Of a DNA stretch of 64,000 bases, positions 600-51,643 are shown in pieces. The stretch is taken from positions 4,985-68,984 of the IMG/VR virus record IMGVR_UViG_3300036647_000024. One strand, 5' to 3'. Made by a program: the position numbers and the translations under genes. The first letter of the stretch is position 1. Each line of letters opens with the position of its first letter. This DNA comes from a virus (taxonomy: Duplodnaviria > Caudoviricetes). A model generated the notes under the pieces. The model saw nothing but the letters and a program-made list of their open reading frames with translations. It was not told the DNA's origin and did not search any database.

Positions 600-1412
600 T
601 TATACTAACTCTAGATCTAAGCCAGTAATTTCTTTAAATGCTATTTTTGCATTTTCTGTCTGGAACTCTGGAAATTCTTTAATAGTATCAAGTACTTCTT
701 TAGGACAAGATTTCCAGGCTTTTTTATAAGATTTATTTTCTAAAGAAAACCATGACATATTAAAACTAATTTTTTCATAAGAACTTTTAGAGACTTCTTG
801 GTCAAAAAGAAAATATTTTGTTTGTCTACAAAATTTATTTAGATATCCATTTCCAGAATTATAAAATCCAGAATTATTATGTCCAGAATTAAAATATCCA
901 GAATTATTACTTCCAGAGTTATAATTTCCAGAGTTGTAATATCCAGAATTATAATTTCCAGAATTATAATTTCCAGAATTCAATTTTCCAGAATTATAGG
1001 ATCCAGAATTATAATTTCCAGAATTACAATCTCCAGAATTACGGAATCCAGAGTTTCTCCATCCAGAATTATCATTTTCTTTGATCAGTTTTTCCCATTC
1101 TTTCTTCGGGATATACTGTAACACCTTGAATTTATTAGTACATCTCTTATATGTATCAAATACTACTTCTCCTAAAACTTCGATTTCTATAAATACTGTT
1201 TCTTCTTCAAATAGATTAATTCCAAAACATAAGTCTTCTTTTCTAAAATAATGAAATCCATACTCACAGAGTTCTAGTTTTTCAGGATCTGGAAGTTCAT
1301 AAGTTTCTCCAGTCTTGAATTCTGTATATTTTGATCCACCGATTCCACCTGTGGAGAATAAGTTATTGTAATCATTAACTTTTCTACAAGCTTTTACAGC
1401 TATTTCGTTCAT
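600..1412 (-). CDS. phage protein with NSGxx pentapeptide-type repeats
   Basis: N-terminal ELCEYGFHY domain typical of phage DUF7666-like proteins, followed by about 15 tandem NSGxx repeats. Confidence 0.7.
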   Translation of the reverse strand: MNEIAVKACRKVNDYNNLFSTGGIGGSKYTEFKTGETYELPDPEKLELCEYGFHYFRKEDLCFGINLFEEETVFIEIEVLGEVVFDTYKRCTNKFKVLQYIPKKEWEKLIKENDNSGWRNSGFRNSGDCNSGNYNSGSYNSGKLNSGNYNSGNYNSGYYNSGNYNSGSNNSGYFNSGHNNSGFYNSGNGYLNKFCRQTKYFLFDQEVSKSSYEKISFNMSWFSLENKSYKKAWKSCPKEVLDTIKEFPEFQTENAKIAFKEITGLDLELV

Positions 1413-8396: not shown

Positions 8397-8951
8397 TTAT
8401 TCATTTGGATGAATAGTAACTGATGCTTTTCCTGCTCTAGTTACAGTATTTGTGTCATAGTCTACTTTTACTGGATAAGGATAAGTAGTAACTAATGTTT
8501 CTACATAATGAGGTTCAATTGCTCCAGAAGGCCCAATACACATTACCCAAGTTGCTGATGTATTTGTGCTTGCAAAAATGCCATTTGGTTCTGCTTGTCC
8601 AACGACAACAGCTTCATGCTCAGCAATTCCCTTTATCCATTCTCCCATTAGAGGATTAGTAAGGCTTGTATCATAGGGAAGACCATATCCCATTGAAGGA
8701 CAATCGTATTCGATCTTTCCATCTCTAGATCGCCATACTGTATGAGTGGCTACTTGCTGATTTCTGATATTGTAGAGTTGAATCAGCAAATCTCTTTCGA
8801 GAGAATAGTTATATCCTGGAACTGGTTGAGCCTTTGCATATTGATCTTGTTGTCTTGCAACAGCTTGTTTTTCTGCTTGATTAGCAGACGGCGTCGGCCG
8901 GACGCAGCCAAGCAAACTAATACACATAATTATAGGAATAATAAACTTCAT
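8397..8951 (-). CDS. lipoprotein
   Basis: Signal peptide with lipobox LLG|C. Confidence 0.7.
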   Translation of the reverse strand: MKFIIPIIMCISLLGCVRPTPSANQAEKQAVARQQDQYAKAQPVPGYNYSLERDLLIQLYNIRNQQVATHTVWRSRDGKIEYDCPSMGYGLPYDTSLTNPLMGEWIKGIAEHEAVVVGQAEPNGIFASTNTSATWVMCIGPSGAIEPHYVETLVTTYPYPVKVDYDTNTVTRAGKASVTIHPNE

Positions 8952-9266
8952 TTAATTTCTCCTTTCAAGAGCATTTAGTTGTACTTCAATTCCGTCAAGC
9001 TGAGATTGAAGTATTGCTTTTTCTTCTTCTTTAATTGCTGGAGATCTGAGCTTTGATTGAATCATTGCTTTTTCTGACTGTAGCATAGCTTCTTTGTCTT
9101 TTTGGCCCGCTGAATATTGATAACTATTTTCAAAAACCTTTCTTTCTACGACTGTATTTCCAAGAATTCCTAGGTAATTAAGTCCAGTAAAGATGATTGT
9201 TGAGATGATCAATAACCCAATAACTAGCATGAACCATCTGCTAAATTCCTTTTTGTAATTATCCAT
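8952..9266 (-). CDS. membrane-anchored coiled-coil protein
   Basis: N-terminal TM helix; abuts the lipoprotein gene. Confidence 0.65.
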   Translation of the reverse strand: MDNYKKEFSRWFMLVIGLLIISTIIFTGLNYLGILGNTVVERKVFENSYQYSAGQKDKEAMLQSEKAMIQSKLRSPAIKEEEKAILQSQLDGIEVQLNALERRN

Positions 9267-9296
9267 TCTTTCTCCTTTGTTGTTTAGGGGTGTTGG

Positions 9297-9515
9297 CTAG
9301 TATCCTCTACCACCTCCACCAAGATAAGAGCAAATCATCCCGCCCATGTTCGATGCCATATGACAAGGCTGATTAAACCCACAAACAGGACATGCAATAT
9401 GCCAAGTTGGAGGGTATGTATTATTTATTTTTAATTCGTCTCTCTTTGCACTAAGTACCGAACCGCATTCCCGACACTGAATCTCGATTCTTCCTTCCGA
9501 GATTACCTGTACCAT
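9297..9515 (-). CDS. zinc-ribbon miniprotein
   Basis: CRECG...CPVCG. Confidence 0.55.
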   Translation of the reverse strand: MVQVISEGRIEIQCRECGSVLSAKRDELKINNTYPPTWHIACPVCGFNQPCHMASNMGGMICSYLGGGGRGY

Positions 9516-9683
9516 TTCTCAGCCCTTTCTATAAGAAGGATTTTGGTTTTTTCTAATAATAGTTTTACCTATCTATTCTTTTCCCTTTATTTAATAAAAT
9601 TAGGGCTAGATAAAATTGTTAAATATTTAGTTAAGTGGCCCGTACGACAAATCAACTGAATATCTTAACTATCTAGCCCTTAG

Positions 9684-9755
9684 TAGGCCGTAGGAGAGTC
9701 GAACTCCTGTGACTGGATCGAAAATCCAGTATCCTGACCACTAGATGAACGGCCC
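9684..9755 (-). tRNA. trnE: tRNA-Glu(UUC)
   Basis: Cloverleaf: acceptor GGGCCGT/ACGGCCT, anticodon arm CTGGA-TTTTCGA-TCCAG, T-loop GTTCGACTC; followed by CTA. Confidence 0.92.
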
Positions 9756-9967
9756 ATAAAAACTATATAGATTTGAAGAGCTTATTTTTTTAAAGATAAC
9801 GGTACCATTATCTTCCTGGCTGCTCTTAAACCGACCAGAAGTATTAGTAGGTCTTATCTATATAGTATTAGTACAGGTGGTGGGATTCGAACCCACATCC
9901 CTTTACAGGGAGCAGATTTTCTTACCACTACAACTTTCGCTGCTGTACTTAAAATACATTTGTGGTC

Positions 9968-9996
9968 TGGACTTTCTCTTTACCATATACTATAAT
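9968..9996 (+). promoter_or_regulatory. sigma70-like promoter for the intron-borne HNH gene
   Basis: TGGACT-N17-TATAAT, about 50 nt upstream of the HNH ATG. Confidence 0.65.
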
Positions 9997-10047
9997 AGTA
10001 CTTAGGTACAGGCCGTAAAGTCTCTACACTTTCAATAGGAGAAAACT

Positions 10048-10506
10048 ATGAAACTACGAAAATACACACAAGAAGAACTTACAGAAGCAGTTGTTAATTC
10101 TACTTCTTATCGTCAAGTTTTAAAAAAACTTAATGTTGTTCCTGCTGGTGGTAATTATCAAACACTTAAGAAAGCAATTAAACATTTTGGTCTAGATAGT
10201 ACACATTTCCTTGGTCGACGGTCAAACCTTGGAAAGAAGTTTGGCTATAAGCGAGCAATTGAAGAATATCTTGAGAATCGACAACCAATTCAATCATATA
10301 AGCTTAAGAATCGTCTTTTAAGTGAGAAGATATTTGAAGCTCAATGTATGAATTGTTTAAGAACTACTTGGGAACATCATCTGATTCCGCTTGAGCTTCA
10401 TCATATAGATGGTAATACTCAAAATAATTCTCTAGATAATCTTAAATTGTTATGTCCAAATTGTCATGCTTTAACTGATAATTATCGTGCTAGAAATTCC
10501 TCCTAA
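10048..10506 (+). CDS. HNH endonuclease (putative intron homing endonuclease)
   Basis: CMNC..ELHHIDGN..NN..DNL..LCPNCH motif; SD TAGGAG; the only convincing plus-strand gene in the left arm. Confidence 0.9.
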   Translation: MKLRKYTQEELTEAVVNSTSYRQVLKKLNVVPAGGNYQTLKKAIKHFGLDSTHFLGRRSNLGKKFGYKRAIEEYLENRQPIQSYKLKNRLLSEKIFEAQCMNCLRTTWEHHLIPLELHHIDGNTQNNSLDNLKLLCPNCHALTDNYRARNSS

Positions 10507-10704
10507 AGCTTAGCTCGGGATTGCCATCACCATAATGTGTTAAGGTTTCCCCGAATTTGACCTGATTCGTCTAGAAGTTTCCTTTCTAGATGCTCAATTT
10601 TAGTATAAGTCTGCCGTGTAATCCATTCCACCACACCTGCATACATTTGTTTAGTCAATTACCCAGAAGTCTATATAATACATTCCTGGTTTATAATCTG
10701 TTTG

Positions 10705-10992
10705 TTAAATACATAGCCAAGTTACTATAATTACTATCATTAAAACAAATGACCATCCATAGATGGCATTTCTGTACTTTTGCCATATAGTCTTAGGCTC
10801 AAATAATTTACAATCATTACGCAAGTTTATATATCTACAACGTGATCTACTAAAATCTAAATATGGACCATTGACTGCATCTAGCATCCATGTTCCGTTG
10901 TCTGGATGATGACATTCTGGCGTATTATGATAGTCTTTTCCTACTTCTAGATATGTACAATCTTTACATAATACTTTGTTTGTTTTATTCAT
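10705..10992 (-). CDS. Cys-rich protein with C-terminal TM helix
   Basis: CKDC..CHHP..C..C followed by a hydrophobic tail. Confidence 0.6.
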   Translation of the reverse strand: MNKTNKVLCKDCTYLEVGKDYHNTPECHHPDNGTWMLDAVNGPYLDFSRSRCRYINLRNDCKLFEPKTIWQKYRNAIYGWSFVLMIVIIVTWLCI

Positions 10993-14291: not shown

Positions 14292-14320
14292 ATAATAATA
14301 TTCTTTGTTACAATTGTCAA
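14292..14320 (-). promoter_or_regulatory. sigma70-like promoter abutting tRNA-Arg
   Basis: TTGACA-N17-TATTAT. Confidence 0.6.
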
Positions 14321-20916: not shown

Positions 20917-21171
20917 ATAGAGCAGAAGCCTGCTAGTCTCACCACTAATTTCGCATACAGGTGACTTATGCTACGAGCTTTCTTCCTCTGAATAGGCTTA
21001 GGCAGTCATTCTTGCAATTATAGTGCTCGTTCTATCTTTGCTAAGCATTACTGTCATACCTAATCTTTGGTTAACAGCATTCTTTTGATTCCCGCTGCAA
21101 GGAACTTTAGGGACAACACAGTTTGTGTATATCCTCCACCACTTGCTTTTTATAGAAGCAAGAAACTACTT

Positions 21172-35869: not shown

Positions 35870-36216
35870 ATACAAATCCTTTCTGAGTCAATGACTCAAG
35901 TTGTTTGTGATAGACGACCCGGGGGCACCGAACATACCCCCTACCCTCTACCACTACTAATACACACTAGGTATCAACAAATTTTCCTGAAATTTTTTCC
36001 CTATAGACAATTTATATCTTTTCAAATTTCCCCCTATTTTCTTTCTTATAGAGCTTTTTGTAATAGAGTTCCTAATTGATACATTTTTACATCTATGTAT
36101 AATCTAAAAAATTTTTTTGCCGGGAAATAAGACTATATAAGAAAATTTTATTCTTGAAGGCTAATGAATATAATGGTAAGGTATATGGAATAAAAGGAAG
36201 AGGACAATATAAATAA
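35870..36216. other. strand-switch region; candidate genome terminus or origin
   Basis: Divergent gene orientation; GC patch ACCCGGGGGCACC and C-runs followed by A/T tracts. Confidence 0.45.
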
Positions 36217-47621: not shown

Positions 47622-48422
47622 GTGCCACGGTGGTCTGATAATCCTAACTATAACTATCTGAAAAATAAGAGACTGGAATTTGCTGCTGATGTGAACACAT
47701 TTGGCAAGCAATACTTTGCTTCTAATTTTTCTAGAGGTGGTTTTGCAGCTACTGCATTTGCCGCTACTCCAGGAGAAGCATTTAGATCTGCTTTTCGGAA
47801 TAATGTTGAGTATGGTGGAGATATCCATTTGGCCCGCATGAAAGCAATGGCACAAGCAGATCCATCACTTTTAGAGTCTAATGCTTGGAAGAATCAATTT
47901 AGAAAAGTTTATGGAGCTAATAGATATGGACAAAGAGGATTTTCTAAAGCAGCTTCAGGATTTTCAGGTGTATTAGGGAAAGCCCTTCCTATTGGCTTTT
48001 TTGCCTTGCCAGCATTTACAACTCCCGGTGGATTAGAAGAAAAAGCTAGAGCGACCCTTGGTGGTGCAGCAAGTTACATTGGATGGGAACTTGGTTCCAA
48101 GTTTGGAATGGGAACAGGAGCAGCTATTGGTAGTATAATTCCTGGATTTGGTACAGCAATTGGTGCTGGAGTTGGATATATTGTTGGTGGTTTCGCTGGA
48201 GCAATAGGATTTGATGAAGGTACTCAAGCTTTAACACGAATTCCAGATGCTATGGTCAAAAGAGAAAGAGAAAGAAGAAGATTAGATTGGGTTGGAAGCA
48301 AAAATGCTTTTCAGACTCAATCAGCTGCTACTATGAGACAACAATCTATGCTTGCAATGAGTAGAGGGTTAATGAATGCTAGATCTGCACTTGGCAGAGA
48401 AGCAGTAATGATGCATCGATAA
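47622..48422 (+). CDS. Gly/Ala-rich glycine-zipper protein
   Basis: GTGAAIGSIIPGFGTAIGAGVGYIVGG. Confidence 0.65.
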   Translation: MPRWSDNPNYNYLKNKRLEFAADVNTFGKQYFASNFSRGGFAATAFAATPGEAFRSAFRNNVEYGGDIHLARMKAMAQADPSLLESNAWKNQFRKVYGANRYGQRGFSKAASGFSGVLGKALPIGFFALPAFTTPGGLEEKARATLGGAASYIGWELGSKFGMGTGAAIGSIIPGFGTAIGAGVGYIVGGFAGAIGFDEGTQALTRIPDAMVKRERERRRLDWVGSKNAFQTQSAATMRQQSMLAMSRGLMNARSALGREAVMMHR

Positions 48423-51400
48423 TGACTAATGAAACAGACAACTTAGAAGATCTAAGAAAAATAGATTTACCTTTTGATATAGACAATGTAGATCCTCAAT
48501 GTATAAAGTGTGTTCGTAATCAGCTTAAGAAATATGAAAAATATGCTTTCAAAGATGAAACTATGGCTACAGGTAAATTCCTTGTGCCGTGTACTGGAAT
48601 TCCAAAACATATTATAGATCCAACTGTTAAGTCTTCTTTAACTGATGATCAACTAGAAGATTATATGTCAGTTATTGACCCGATTACATTTGCAAAGCGG
48701 TTTATTCAAGACAACAAAGGGAATCCTTGGATTGCAAGAGATCCACATCAAGTTGAAGTGCTAAAGTGTACTTCTCGTAGACGGGTATTACGTATAAGCA
48801 GGAGGACCGGAAAAACGGCTTTGGTAGTTGTTGATATTATATTTAATGCATATACTAACAAGAAGAAAAAAATTCTTGTCATTGGCCCACAAAAGAAGCA
48901 TACACAGGAAGTCTTTAACAGGATTAAAGAGATTATATATGCAAATCCAATATTATCAGATTCTGTTGTGACAGATGTTACAGCACCACACCCAAAGATT
49001 GTATTTAAGAACGGAACAGAAATTAGAGGTTTTGCTGGCGGTGCAAAAGGAAAAGGAGAAGGTTTAGCTGTTCGTGGAGAAGATGCCGATTTAATTTATT
49101 GTTTTCCAAAAGGAACTCTTGTTTCTACTTCTGTATTTGGGGTTCGTCCAATTGAAAGTTTACGGTTAAAAGATACTATTTTAGGTGGAAATCAAGAAGG
49201 AATACAGATTGGTGAAATAACAAACCTACTGCTTAATAAAGGACAAACAATGACTTTGTCTACCGCATTAGGAAAAATTACATGTACACCTGATCATCCT
49301 TTGTTTAATGGCAAAGAAGATATTCCTGCAAAACAAGCTGATAGTGTTATATTTTCTCTAGCTCACCAGAATCTTACTTTCAGTAAAGAAGTTATATTAG
49401 CTAGACTGCTTGGATTTGTGTATGGAGATGGATGGGCTAGCCAAAAATCAATTGGTTTTTCTGGACAACCTGAAGATTTAGAACAAGTCATAGAAGACCT
49501 TTCTTTACTAGGAGACATTCGACATAAAGTTTCATCTAGAACTACAGAAAATAAGAAAAGAAACATTAAAGGATTTGGAGCAGAATTTCATTCTCAATAT
49601 CTATATCCTATATTAAAAGATTTCCTTCCACAAGGCAAAAAAGTGTATCAACCTATTCGAGTACCAAAACATATTATGAATGGACTTGATTATTTAAAAA
49701 CTTCATTTTTGTCAGGATTATTTTCTGCAGAGGCAACTTCTTTTAAGTTTCAGAAAAATGGAATAACTCCACGTTCTATAGAATTAAAGATGTGTAGTTC
49801 TAAAGAAAATTGGATACGCGATTGGTTTAAAGATATTTCAACTTTATTGGCTGATATTGGTATTGATTATTCTTTAAAGTTTAAATATTTTTTTGACGAA
49901 TATAATAAAGAATCACGATATTATGGCATAATCAAAGTTTTTGGAGAAGAAAGCAATCTTCTTAAATATGCCAATAAGATTGGATATTGTTACAATTATC
50001 AGAAAACTATTGATATGAATTCATTTTTAGCATATTCACATTATAAAAAAATATGGAAACAAAAATGCTGGAGAAGAAATCGTATTATTAGAAAATATGA
50101 AAATTGTTCTTCATCTGAAGCAGCAAGACGAACAAAAATAAACAAAGCAACTATTAAATATCATAGAAGTCATGATATTTATAACAATCTATATTCTGAA
50201 AACCTTTTAACTTGTAAAGAATATATTAACAAAATTACTTGGAAAGAAAATTTTGTTGTTTTGCCTATTTACAAGCAAAGTACAAGATATAACCAGGAAG
50301 AGCCTTTAGTAGATGTATATAATTTAACATCAACAGCTAGTAATAGATATTTTGCATCTGGTATTTTTACTCATAATTGTGAAGAAGCTGCGTATATAGA
50401 AGAAGATTCATTTAAAAGTGTTATTTCACCAATTCTGTATACAACACCTGAAGTTAAGCTAACAGCGTTTTCTACTCCAGCCCCATTTAGAAATACTTTT
50501 TATCAATATTGTAAAGAAAATCCTATTTATAAAGAATATCATTATAACTATAAAGTATTGCCTTGGTGGAAACAAATCGAGCAAGAAAGAGAGAATCTAA
50601 CAGAAGATCAGTGGAAAACTGAGTACCTAGCAGAATTTCCAGAGGGTGATGCAGGTGTATATAAGCCTTCTTATATTGATAGAGCATTAAAAACATATTT
50701 GTATTCAGAAATACAACCACATATGATGTGGAGATATGTTATGGGTGTAGATTGGAATGAAAAACATGGTGCTGAAATTGTCGTTATTGGATACAATCCT
50801 CTAACAAGGAGATATCAAGTTGTTGAAGCTGAATGTATTGAATCTTCTGAATTTACACAACTTAAAAGTGTTGATAAAGTTATTGAGCTAAACAAAAAGT
50901 GGAGACCATCTTTTGTATATATTGATTCTGGAAATGGCTCTACTAATGCGGAATTATTAAGAAAAACAGCACAAGAGCATTCAATGAACAATGGTGATTT
51001 TGCTACTGCTAAATTACTAATGACACTTAGAAAATATGATTCAGGTGCTAGTATTACAACTAGAGATCCTATTACAAATGAAAAGTTAAAAAAACCTGCT
51101 AAATCTTTTATGGTTAATGCTGCTGTAAGAATGTTTGAACAAGGACTTATTAATATTTCTACACATGATCATATATTAGAAAAACAACTCAGAAACTATA
51201 TTATTGAACGTATGACCCCAACTGGAAATCCTGTATATGGTCTTCAAGAACCAAAAGTATTAGATCATAGACTAGATGCTTTTAACCTTGCATGTGTAGG
51301 TTTTCAACTTGAATTTAATGATTTACATGTAGTACAACATGTTAACAGAGCTGGTGCAGCATTAGACCCAAGAATTATACAAACAAATGAAAAAGGTCAA

Positions 51401-51643
51401 AAAGAGCTTATTAAAAATGTACCAGAACAAAGAAGTATGGACACTATAAAAACTCCACTAGAAGCTATTGCTTTTCCATATTTACCAGGGAGAGTAGATA
51501 CACTAGAAGGTATTAGAACAAATCGTCTTGGCTGGGATACAGACCAAGAAGAACTTGAAAAAGCAAAATTTATACAAAGAAGACGTTCTCATGATAAAAT
51601 TCGTGGTAGGTTTAGCAAAAAACCAAAGAGAACTAATATTTAG
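48422..51643 (+). CDS. terL: terminase large subunit, intein-containing
   Basis: SRRTGKT Walker A, Walker B split by the intein, STP coupling motif, MGVDW nuclease motif, DHRLDA. Confidence 0.92.
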   Translation: MTNETDNLEDLRKIDLPFDIDNVDPQCIKCVRNQLKKYEKYAFKDETMATGKFLVPCTGIPKHIIDPTVKSSLTDDQLEDYMSVIDPITFAKRFIQDNKGNPWIARDPHQVEVLKCTSRRRVLRISRRTGKTALVVVDIIFNAYTNKKKKILVIGPQKKHTQEVFNRIKEIIYANPILSDSVVTDVTAPHPKIVFKNGTEIRGFAGGAKGKGEGLAVRGEDADLIYCFPKGTLVSTSVFGVRPIESLRLKDTILGGNQEGIQIGEITNLLLNKGQTMTLSTALGKITCTPDHPLFNGKEDIPAKQADSVIFSLAHQNLTFSKEVILARLLGFVYGDGWASQKSIGFSGQPEDLEQVIEDLSLLGDIRHKVSSRTTENKKRNIKGFGAEFHSQYLYPILKDFLPQGKKVYQPIRVPKHIMNGLDYLKTSFLSGLFSAEATSFKFQKNGITPRSIELKMCSSKENWIRDWFKDISTLLADIGIDYSLKFKYFFDEYNKESRYYGIIKVFGEESNLLKYANKIGYCYNYQKTIDMNSFLAYSHYKKIWKQKCWRRNRIIRKYENCSSSEAARRTKINKATIKYHRSHDIYNNLYSENLLTCKEYINKITWKENFVVLPIYKQSTRYNQEEPLVDVYNLTSTASNRYFASGIFTHNCEEAAYIEEDSFKSVISPILYTTPEVKLTAFSTPAPFRNTFYQYCKENPIYKEYHYNYKVLPWWKQIEQERENLTEDQWKTEYLAEFPEGDAGVYKPSYIDRALKTYLYSEIQPHMMWRYVMGVDWNEKHGAEIVVIGYNPLTRRYQVVEAECIESSEFTQLKSVDKVIELNKKWRPSFVYIDSGNGSTNAELLRKTAQEHSMNNGDFATAKLLMTLRKYDSGASITTRDPITNEKLKKPAKSFMVNAAVRMFEQGLINISTHDHILEKQLRNYIIERMTPTGNPVYGLQEPKVLDHRLDAFNLACVGFQLEFNDLHVVQHVNRAGAALDPRIIQTNEKGQKELIKNVPEQRSMDTIKTPLEAIAFPYLPGRVDTLEGIRTNRLGWDTDQEELEKAKFIQRRRSHDKIRGRFSKKPKRTNI
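49100..50377 (+). mobile_element. intein with LAGLIDADG homing endonuclease (426 aa)
   Basis: Starts CFPKGT, ends FTHN followed by Cys; LLGFVYGDG and FLSGLFSAE blocks. Confidence 0.93.

Follow-up and report, generated by a model that had tools for sequence, protein, structure and literature searches.

The tRNA-Leu(UAA) gene on the minus strand of the window (that is, the whole 64,000-nucleotide stretch of phage DNA analysed) is interrupted by a classical group I intron whose P6 loop holds a putative HNH homing-endonuclease gene on the opposite, plus strand, and the best candidate for a promoter of that gene is TGGACT-N17-TATAAT at positions 9968-9996, the bases of which would be dual-coded. 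The case for this site being the working promoter of the HNH gene is judged to be evenly poised, because the gene is intact, is the sole plus-strand gene in the minus-strand block on its 5' side and has no better candidate upstream, and because the phage has other sigma-70-like sites and free-standing relatives of the gene carry a promoter-like cassette of their own. The sequence, the anatomy of the intron, the strand isolation of the gene and the spread of this layout among its relatives were observed directly; that the site fires is inferred.

The window comes from an IMG/VR record of 68,984 bases, estimated to be 57% complete, of a tailed phage with terminase, portal and head genes; a T4-type capsid gene (Gp23) was not found in the part of the phage genome examined. 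The large-terminase ORF (48422-51643, plus strand, 1073 aa) shows terminase matches that are split between residues 84-225 and 653-957, and the ∼430 unmatched residues between them could represent an intein or other insertion. Six tRNA genes, and all of the credible genes near the intron, are encoded on the minus strand. Within the minus-strand block that extends on its 5' side, no gene but the HNH gene reads in the plus direction, and it therefore needs a promoter of its own. Its translation contains a visible CxxC...HH..N...CxxCH motif, with matches to Pfam HNH_3 (23.1 bits, cut-off 24.8) and HNH (19.8 bits, cut-off 21.4) that both fall just below threshold. Homologues at E ≤ 1e-20 number 1726, and PF13392/PF01844 is found in homologues; a PDB sequence search with the HNH protein returned nothing relevant and no solved relative. 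Comparison with homologues that share 50-70% identity shows no truncation or disruption of the gene, which is therefore presumably expressed.

The intron itself was examined by reference to its exon junctions and its relatives. The 686 nt between the exons start after U and end in G (tRNA gene 10640 to 9872, minus strand), and the insertion between U34 and A35, the terminal G and the conserved P3-P9 core are those of IC3-type introns; 23 introns without an ORF, taken from other viral contigs, can be aligned with it over the entire core. On this anatomy the tRNA-Leu(UAA) intron is to be classed as a group I intron, and is presumably self-splicing. The ORF-less relatives score 53-68 bits on Rfam RF00028, for which the gathering score is 50 bits, whereas the window intron gives 23.4 bits for its 5' part and 8.8 bits for its 3' part, low values that arise because the 459-nt ORF splits the model and that say little about the intron itself. 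On the plus strand, the region of the HNH stop codon (TCCTCCTAAAGC) is the complement of the 5' arm of the P6 stem. The 3' part of the intron, from P8 to P9 (9911-10008, minus strand), also gave a sub-threshold match to the Rfam LOOT RNA (RF03000; 27.1 bits, E 0.0014), and the LOOT motif may partly describe the 3' halves of ORF-split tRNA-Leu group I introns. Many of the intron-containing relatives (L004, L005, L013, L016 and others) have a UAA anticodon but a variable region of only 4-5 nt, and are class I-shaped rather than of the long-arm Leu type; the long arm is kept in the window, L006 and L024. Coordinates of the individual features are collected in Table 1.

Table 1. Features of the tRNA-Leu(UAA) gene, its intron and the antisense HNH gene; positions are those of the window.
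Feature	Position	Strand	Remarks
-35-like hexamer TGGACT	9968-9973	+	4/6 matches to TTGACA; complement of AGUCCA (S element, P7 3' strand)
-10-like hexamer TATAAT	9991-9996	+	6/6 matches; 17 nt after TGGACT; complement of the P8 UUA loop together with the two pairs that close it
Shine-Dalgarno-like TAGGAG	10036-10041	+	6 nt before ATG; read on the minus strand, forms the 3' arm of the extended P6 stem
Putative HNH homing-endonuclease gene, 152 aa	10048-10506	+	antisense, in the P6 loop
P8: ACC UAA GUACUA-UUA-UAGUAU AUGGU	9982-10007	-	from the fold; distal 15 nt (9987-10001) form a variable hairpin
Weak terminator-like hairpin and T-run	10568-10602	+	complement of the intron P2 hairpin and P1/IGS
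Group I intron, cyanobacterial tRNA-Leu(UAA) type	9921-10606	-	between U34 and A35; ends in G
tRNA-Leu(UAA) 5' exon (G1 to U34)	10607-10640	-	read from the sequence
tRNA-Leu(UAA) 3' exon (A35 to A73)	9872-9920	-	read from the sequence; starts AAAATCTGC at 9920

An earlier note on this DNA had claimed that a promoter for the antisense gene is written into the reverse strand of the ribozyme core, and direct reading bears out the anatomy on which that claim was built. The two hexamers are present on the plus strand with a 17-nt spacer (9974-9990) between them, and are followed by the Shine-Dalgarno-like sequence and the ATG at 10048. The -35-like box corresponds, on the other strand, to AGUCCA of the S element, and the -10-like box to the P8 tip, the 15-mer at 9987-10001 folding as the distal hairpin of P8, GUACUA-UUA-UAGUAU. 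Taken together the boxes have 10 of 12 consensus matches and an optimal spacer (consensus scan; the promoter rules of the host may differ). The features expected of sigma-70 hexamers are present, in that the -10 box has A at position 2 and T at position 6 and the spacer lies within 16-18 nt, and the HNH ATG is located 51 nt beyond the -10 box, in the right orientation for a promoter. The claim that the site actually serves the HNH gene fared less uniformly: the anatomy and the isolation of the gene argue for it, but the lack of conservation or of enrichment over chance of the sigma-70 box across 43 related variants, described below, argues against.

The constraints on the two boxes are of different kinds. 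The minus-strand sequence AAGTCCAGAC (9974-9965) is the S/P7-3' element, which is invariant in the 24 aligned introns (the 23 relatives and the window) and in the 43 antisense-HNH variants, and since it is invariant in all related introns the TGGACT hexamer is dictated by the ribozyme rather than by any function in transcription. The distal hairpin of P8, on the other hand, varies freely among the relatives with compensatory substitutions in the stem, which indicates selection on RNA pairing. The mechanism that we propose would make use of both: TGGACT would be available as the complement of an obligatory AGUCCA, and TATAAT, as the complement of the P8 tip, would be free to vary while pairing holds. 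Host sigma-70 RNA polymerase would then start near 10003, giving an mRNA of ∼0.5-0.6 kb that lies wholly inside the intron and perhaps ends at the complement of P2. The hairpin at that location has a predicted energy of -11.2 kcal/mol (z -2.7), with a U-run beginning 5 nt past the stem, and would be a weak terminator at best. Relatives appear to solve the need for a promoter with other sequences at the same slot, T4-like phages using TATAAATA.

Several further observations bear on the promoter reading. In the 1.5 kb scanned upstream of the HNH gene (8500-10047), 9968-9996 is the only plus-strand site with at least 9 of 12 matches. Elsewhere in the phage, sigma-70-like sites are found before tRNA-Arg at 14320 (TTGACA-17-TATTAT), before the tmRNA region at 21044 (TTAGCA-16-TATAAT) and at the strand switch at 36076 (TTGATA-16-TATAAT). 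A run of TGGA[AC]A-16-TATAAT matches at ∼885-1035 on the minus strand, some of them 15 nt apart, suggests a short tandem repeat rather than real promoters. Alternative boxes derived from the complement of the intron core were also considered: TTGTGG-15-TACCAT and TTAGGT-15-TACACT were rejected in the window on account of poor spacing or a poor -35, and TTGATG-16-TACCAT is good in L095 only.

In many phages, members of the HNH family accompany tRNA-Leu(UAA) genes, and they do so in several layouts: free-standing and convergent, just 3' of an intron-containing tRNA-Leu(UAA); free-standing beside an intron-less tRNA-Leu(UAA); sense, near the 5' splice site; sense in P6, including in the published huge-phage record LR756511.1; and antisense in P6, as in the window. 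That the family is always found with this tRNA gene is the one observation that points to site-specific cleavage of the intron-less allele by the HNH protein. The huge-phage gene (L204, from a 595-kb uncultured phage) is homologous to that of the window (54% identity) and lies in sense orientation in the P6 loop of the same tRNA-Leu intron, so both orientations exist at the same site. A more distant member (39% identity) is present in a cultured cyanophage, Synechococcus phage S-CRM01 (L203, record positions 145010-145599), where it is annotated as overlapping the 3' end of tRNA-Leu on the same strand, and could provide an experimental handle for the family. A related viral locus, L040, contains a Pistol ribozyme match (1019-1081, minus strand; 52.4 bits, above threshold) near a tRNA-Arg gene.

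Free-standing HNH relatives have a strongly conserved upstream cassette, TTcAAA-N16-TAnnnT, so the family would normally travel with a sigma-70-type promoter; at the level of sequence the cassette looks like a promoter travelling with the gene. It comprises TTcAAA, then TTTGGTGTATATnTATTATAGCGTTTAC, then AGGAGTCAA, and is positioned ∼25-60 nt upstream of the HNH start in L003-L040, where the flanks are otherwise unrelated. Homology between the P8 box of the window and this cassette was considered in view of a shared CTAT[T/A]ATAG noted by eye. Local alignments scored against shuffles gave p values of 0.07-0.99, the single alignment at p = 0.01 fell in the Shine-Dalgarno region, and the homology reading was dropped.

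The foremost alternative is that the box is a chance look-alike, and this has an appreciable, if minority, prospect of being correct. The ribozyme forces TGGACT, and an AU-rich palindromic P8 17 nt away happens to read TATAAT on the other strand; the site would then not be the HNH promoter, or would show only background firing, and the nuclease would be transcribed from elsewhere, by pervasive low-level transcription, or hardly at all. This was examined by comparison with 43 distinct antisense-in-P6 variants, which were gathered by scanning viral and metagenome contigs for the pattern and by looking up the most similar proteins. In the slot 16-18 nt from TGGACT, TATAAT is present in the window and two near-identical contigs, TAGAAT in L157 and TATACT in L168, and the other variants have mostly non-promoter sequences. 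In favour of a promoter, the nearest relative of the same layout (L084, 71% HNH identity) keeps TGGACT-17-TAAAAT, with four stem positions changed with compensation. In favour of chance, L085 (68% HNH identity) reads TATAAC and L112 reads TATAAG, the critical last T of the -10 box thus being lost while RNA pairing is kept via G-U. When the P8 hairpin of the window was subjected to pair-preserving shuffles with TGGACT held fixed, the observed score was attained in 3.3% of trials and a score of at least 8.5 in 9.5%, and TGGACT-anchored scores of at least 8.5 were seen in 4 of the 43 variants, against ∼4 expected from structure-preserving shuffles of the AU-rich hairpin. The best sigma-70 score in the 190 nt upstream of the gene did not exceed that of a control set of 20 ORF-less introns (p = 0.44 by the Mann-Whitney test). 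There is no family-wide signature of selection for a sigma-70 promoter, and the box is lineage-specific.

The density of such sites in the surrounding DNA leads in the same direction. Promoter-like sites between 8500 and 12500 number 19, compared with 17.1 ± 4.4 in shuffles, and the contig holds 52 sites of at least 10/12 in 138 kb of both strands, equivalent to a chance of ∼4% per 100-nt stretch. Three plus-strand 10/12 sites (10652-10679, 10702-10731 and 10780-10807) lie just past the 5' end of tRNA-Leu with no plus-strand gene behind them, and these geneless sites serve as a gauge of local noise. The same palindromic P8 tip also yields TTTACG-16-TATTAT on the minus (intron) strand. In addition, the window was picked for showing the motif, which constitutes a selection effect. 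The box is beyond chance expectation only weakly, and as a motif class it is not; if it is a mere look-alike then the finding is ordinary, AT-rich phage DNA being full of such matches. Against the chance reading stands the fact that an intact, conserved gene must be expressed from some promoter, and none better is visible upstream. Moreover, sigma-70 holoenzyme usually transcribes from a 10/12 match that has a 17-nt spacer and a perfect -10. The third point against chance is that in T4-like relatives this slot is occupied by the promoter consensus of those phages.

In these relatives the P8 tip reads [T/C]ATAAATA in four variants with different stem bases (L087; L095/L148/L162; L176; L135/L167), and the registers of the motif within the hairpin appear to differ among the four. 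The contigs of L087 and L135 encode the T4-type major capsid protein (Gp23), and the T4 late-promoter consensus, TATAAATA, is present upstream of the HNH gene in L087, L095 and L176, and nearly so in L135. L087 belongs to a complete T4-like genome of 168 kb, in which TATAAATA is found only 21 times, with 12 of the copies in the 7% of the genome that is non-coding and 10 of the 21 no more than 60 nt ahead of an ORF on the same strand. For two of three control 8-mers of similar composition the number of copies so placed ahead of an ORF was 1 and 5, the third control being the reverse complement of the motif. Occurrence in few, intergenic and gene-proximal copies is the expected behaviour of T4-type late promoters. 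One of the ten gene-proximal copies is the P8 site itself, located 46 nt ahead of the HNH start codon. In the only sub-group for which a promoter consensus of the resident phage is known, the P8 tip therefore matches it exactly and retains it as the stem varies. Since the four variants are related by descent and are not four independent cases, this is suggestive of a promoter slot and not proof of one. A T4-type late promoter was rejected for the window, which reads TATAATAG rather than TATAAATA at this position; in the window's contig TATAAATA is found 21 times against 19 expected and is not gene-proximal, and the phage has no Gp23 match.

The P8 tip is plausibly a promoter slot. A broader proposition is that it is a dual-coded slot that has been retuned to the form of polymerase used by the resident phage, with a sigma-70 TATAAT paired with the ribozyme-fixed TGGACT in the window and a gp55-type TATAAATA in the T4-like phages. 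This generalisation is put forward tentatively, and may well prove to be wrong.

It is also conceivable, although improbable, that the P8 box is irrelevant and that the HNH gene is served by a promoter of another kind or in another place, such as a phage-specific class of promoter, or a start in the tRNA-Glu/tRNA-Leu spacer (9756-9871) or in the complement of P9. Variants L122 and L141, for example, have a short P8 and no box, but their P9 region contains a palindromic ACTATATAATAGT that lies upstream of both TGGACT and the antisense HNH gene. Several variants are without a good sigma-70 site within 190-260 nt, and the promoter rules of the host may differ from those assumed. The window offers little to such a promoter, however: there is no plus-strand site of at least 9/12 between 8500 and 9967, none of the 10-mers within 9861-10047 is repeated ahead of another gene of the contig or in a meaningful place, and TATAAATA is neither enriched nor gene-proximal in this phage.

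The earlier note had gone further, proposing that the transcript regulates the intron. RNA starting at ∼10003 would pair with the intron core (the 5' half of P8, P3', P7 and P6-P2), and so lower splicing and the supply of tRNA-Leu while the nuclease is made, a role that seems unlikely. The transcript would be geometrically complementary to most of the core, and for nuclear rDNA introns with antisense endonuclease genes the possibility of such interference has been discussed (PMC9548176). Titration would more likely run in reverse, however, with intron RNA silencing a scarce HNH mRNA, or transcription of the tRNA might instead occlude the promoter. Precursors of tRNAs are normally far more abundant than endonuclease mRNAs. 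Given these usual levels of expression, the excised intron RNA, in which the entire HNH mRNA is represented as its complement, could silence the nuclease, an outcome no less likely than throttling of splicing. The late consensus in the T4-like relatives also hints at separation in time from tRNA transcription, as opposed to interplay with it.

To return to the site at 9968-9996 as the promoter of the HNH gene, its interest derives from the position in which a backwards gene is placed. Intron-borne endonuclease genes need to be expressed without harm to the host gene; a backwards gene cannot ride the host transcript and must therefore bring a promoter, and a ribozyme of 230 nt leaves almost no free sequence for one. 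If the promoter reading is correct, the P8 tip would represent a compact case in which one stretch of DNA codes for RNA structure on one strand and for a signal to RNA polymerase on the other. The persistence of a backwards nuclease gene in phage tRNA introns would then be explained as well, and the promoter reading would make the mobile unit of ribozyme, nuclease and promoter self-contained within ∼690 nt.

Two elements of this arrangement are known already, namely intron-internal endonuclease promoters in T4 and antisense endonuclease genes in protist rDNA introns. The latter comprise the nuclear group I introns Dir.S956-2 of Didymium iridis and Dsq.L2066 of D. squamulosum, for which an internal or opposite-strand promoter has been proposed and antisense interference discussed as a problem (PMC9548176). 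In the literature searched, these nuclear rDNA introns (PMC9548176) were the only description of antisense intron-borne endonuclease genes found; no such gene in a bacterial or phage group I intron was found in the searchable literature, coverage of which is incomplete, so that absence is not proven. The window resembles the Didymium introns in having the endonuclease gene on the strand opposite the ribozyme. The Didymium introns are eukaryotic, however, and involve RNA polymerase II, polyadenylation, spliceosomal introns and His-Cys box enzymes, with insertion in P9.2 in the case of Dsq.L2066, whereas the window is from a phage and has sigma-70-type signals, an HNH enzyme, a P6 insertion and a tRNA host gene.

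The ribozyme itself is akin to the cyanobacterial and plastid tRNA-Leu(UAA) intron of subgroup IC3, with which it shares the U34/A35 site and a core with GGUAAAGAGAAAGUCCAGAC and GUGUAGAGACU, and ORF-less phage relatives of this type exceed the Rfam threshold. To our knowledge the classical cyanobacterial or plastid intron is ORF-less and is treated as immobile; by contrast, the window and the 43 variants carry an antisense HNH gene in P6, and other phages carry the gene in sense orientation or free-standing beside the tRNA. The free-standing layouts recall "collaborative homing", in which free-standing endonucleases are encoded beside intron-containing genes, as with the cyanophage psbA intron. 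Many of the HNH relatives are likewise located just 3' of an intron-containing or intron-less tRNA-Leu(UAA), with their own promoter-like cassette, whereas the HNH gene of the window has moved inside the intron without the cassette, to which similarity was not significant. A close parallel for expression from within an intron is provided by the group I introns of phage T4, such as the td intron, where the I-TevI ORF is looped out of P6 and promoters within the intron drive its own endonuclease gene. An endonuclease ORF in the P6 loop and a promoter inside the intron would be common to both systems, and the T4-like relatives described here show TATAAATA. In td, however, the gene and its promoter are on the intron's own strand, with the promoter in the looped-out insert, whereas the HNH gene of the window reads from the strand opposite to the intron, and its candidate boxes coincide with two elements of the ribozyme, the 3' strand of P7 and P8.
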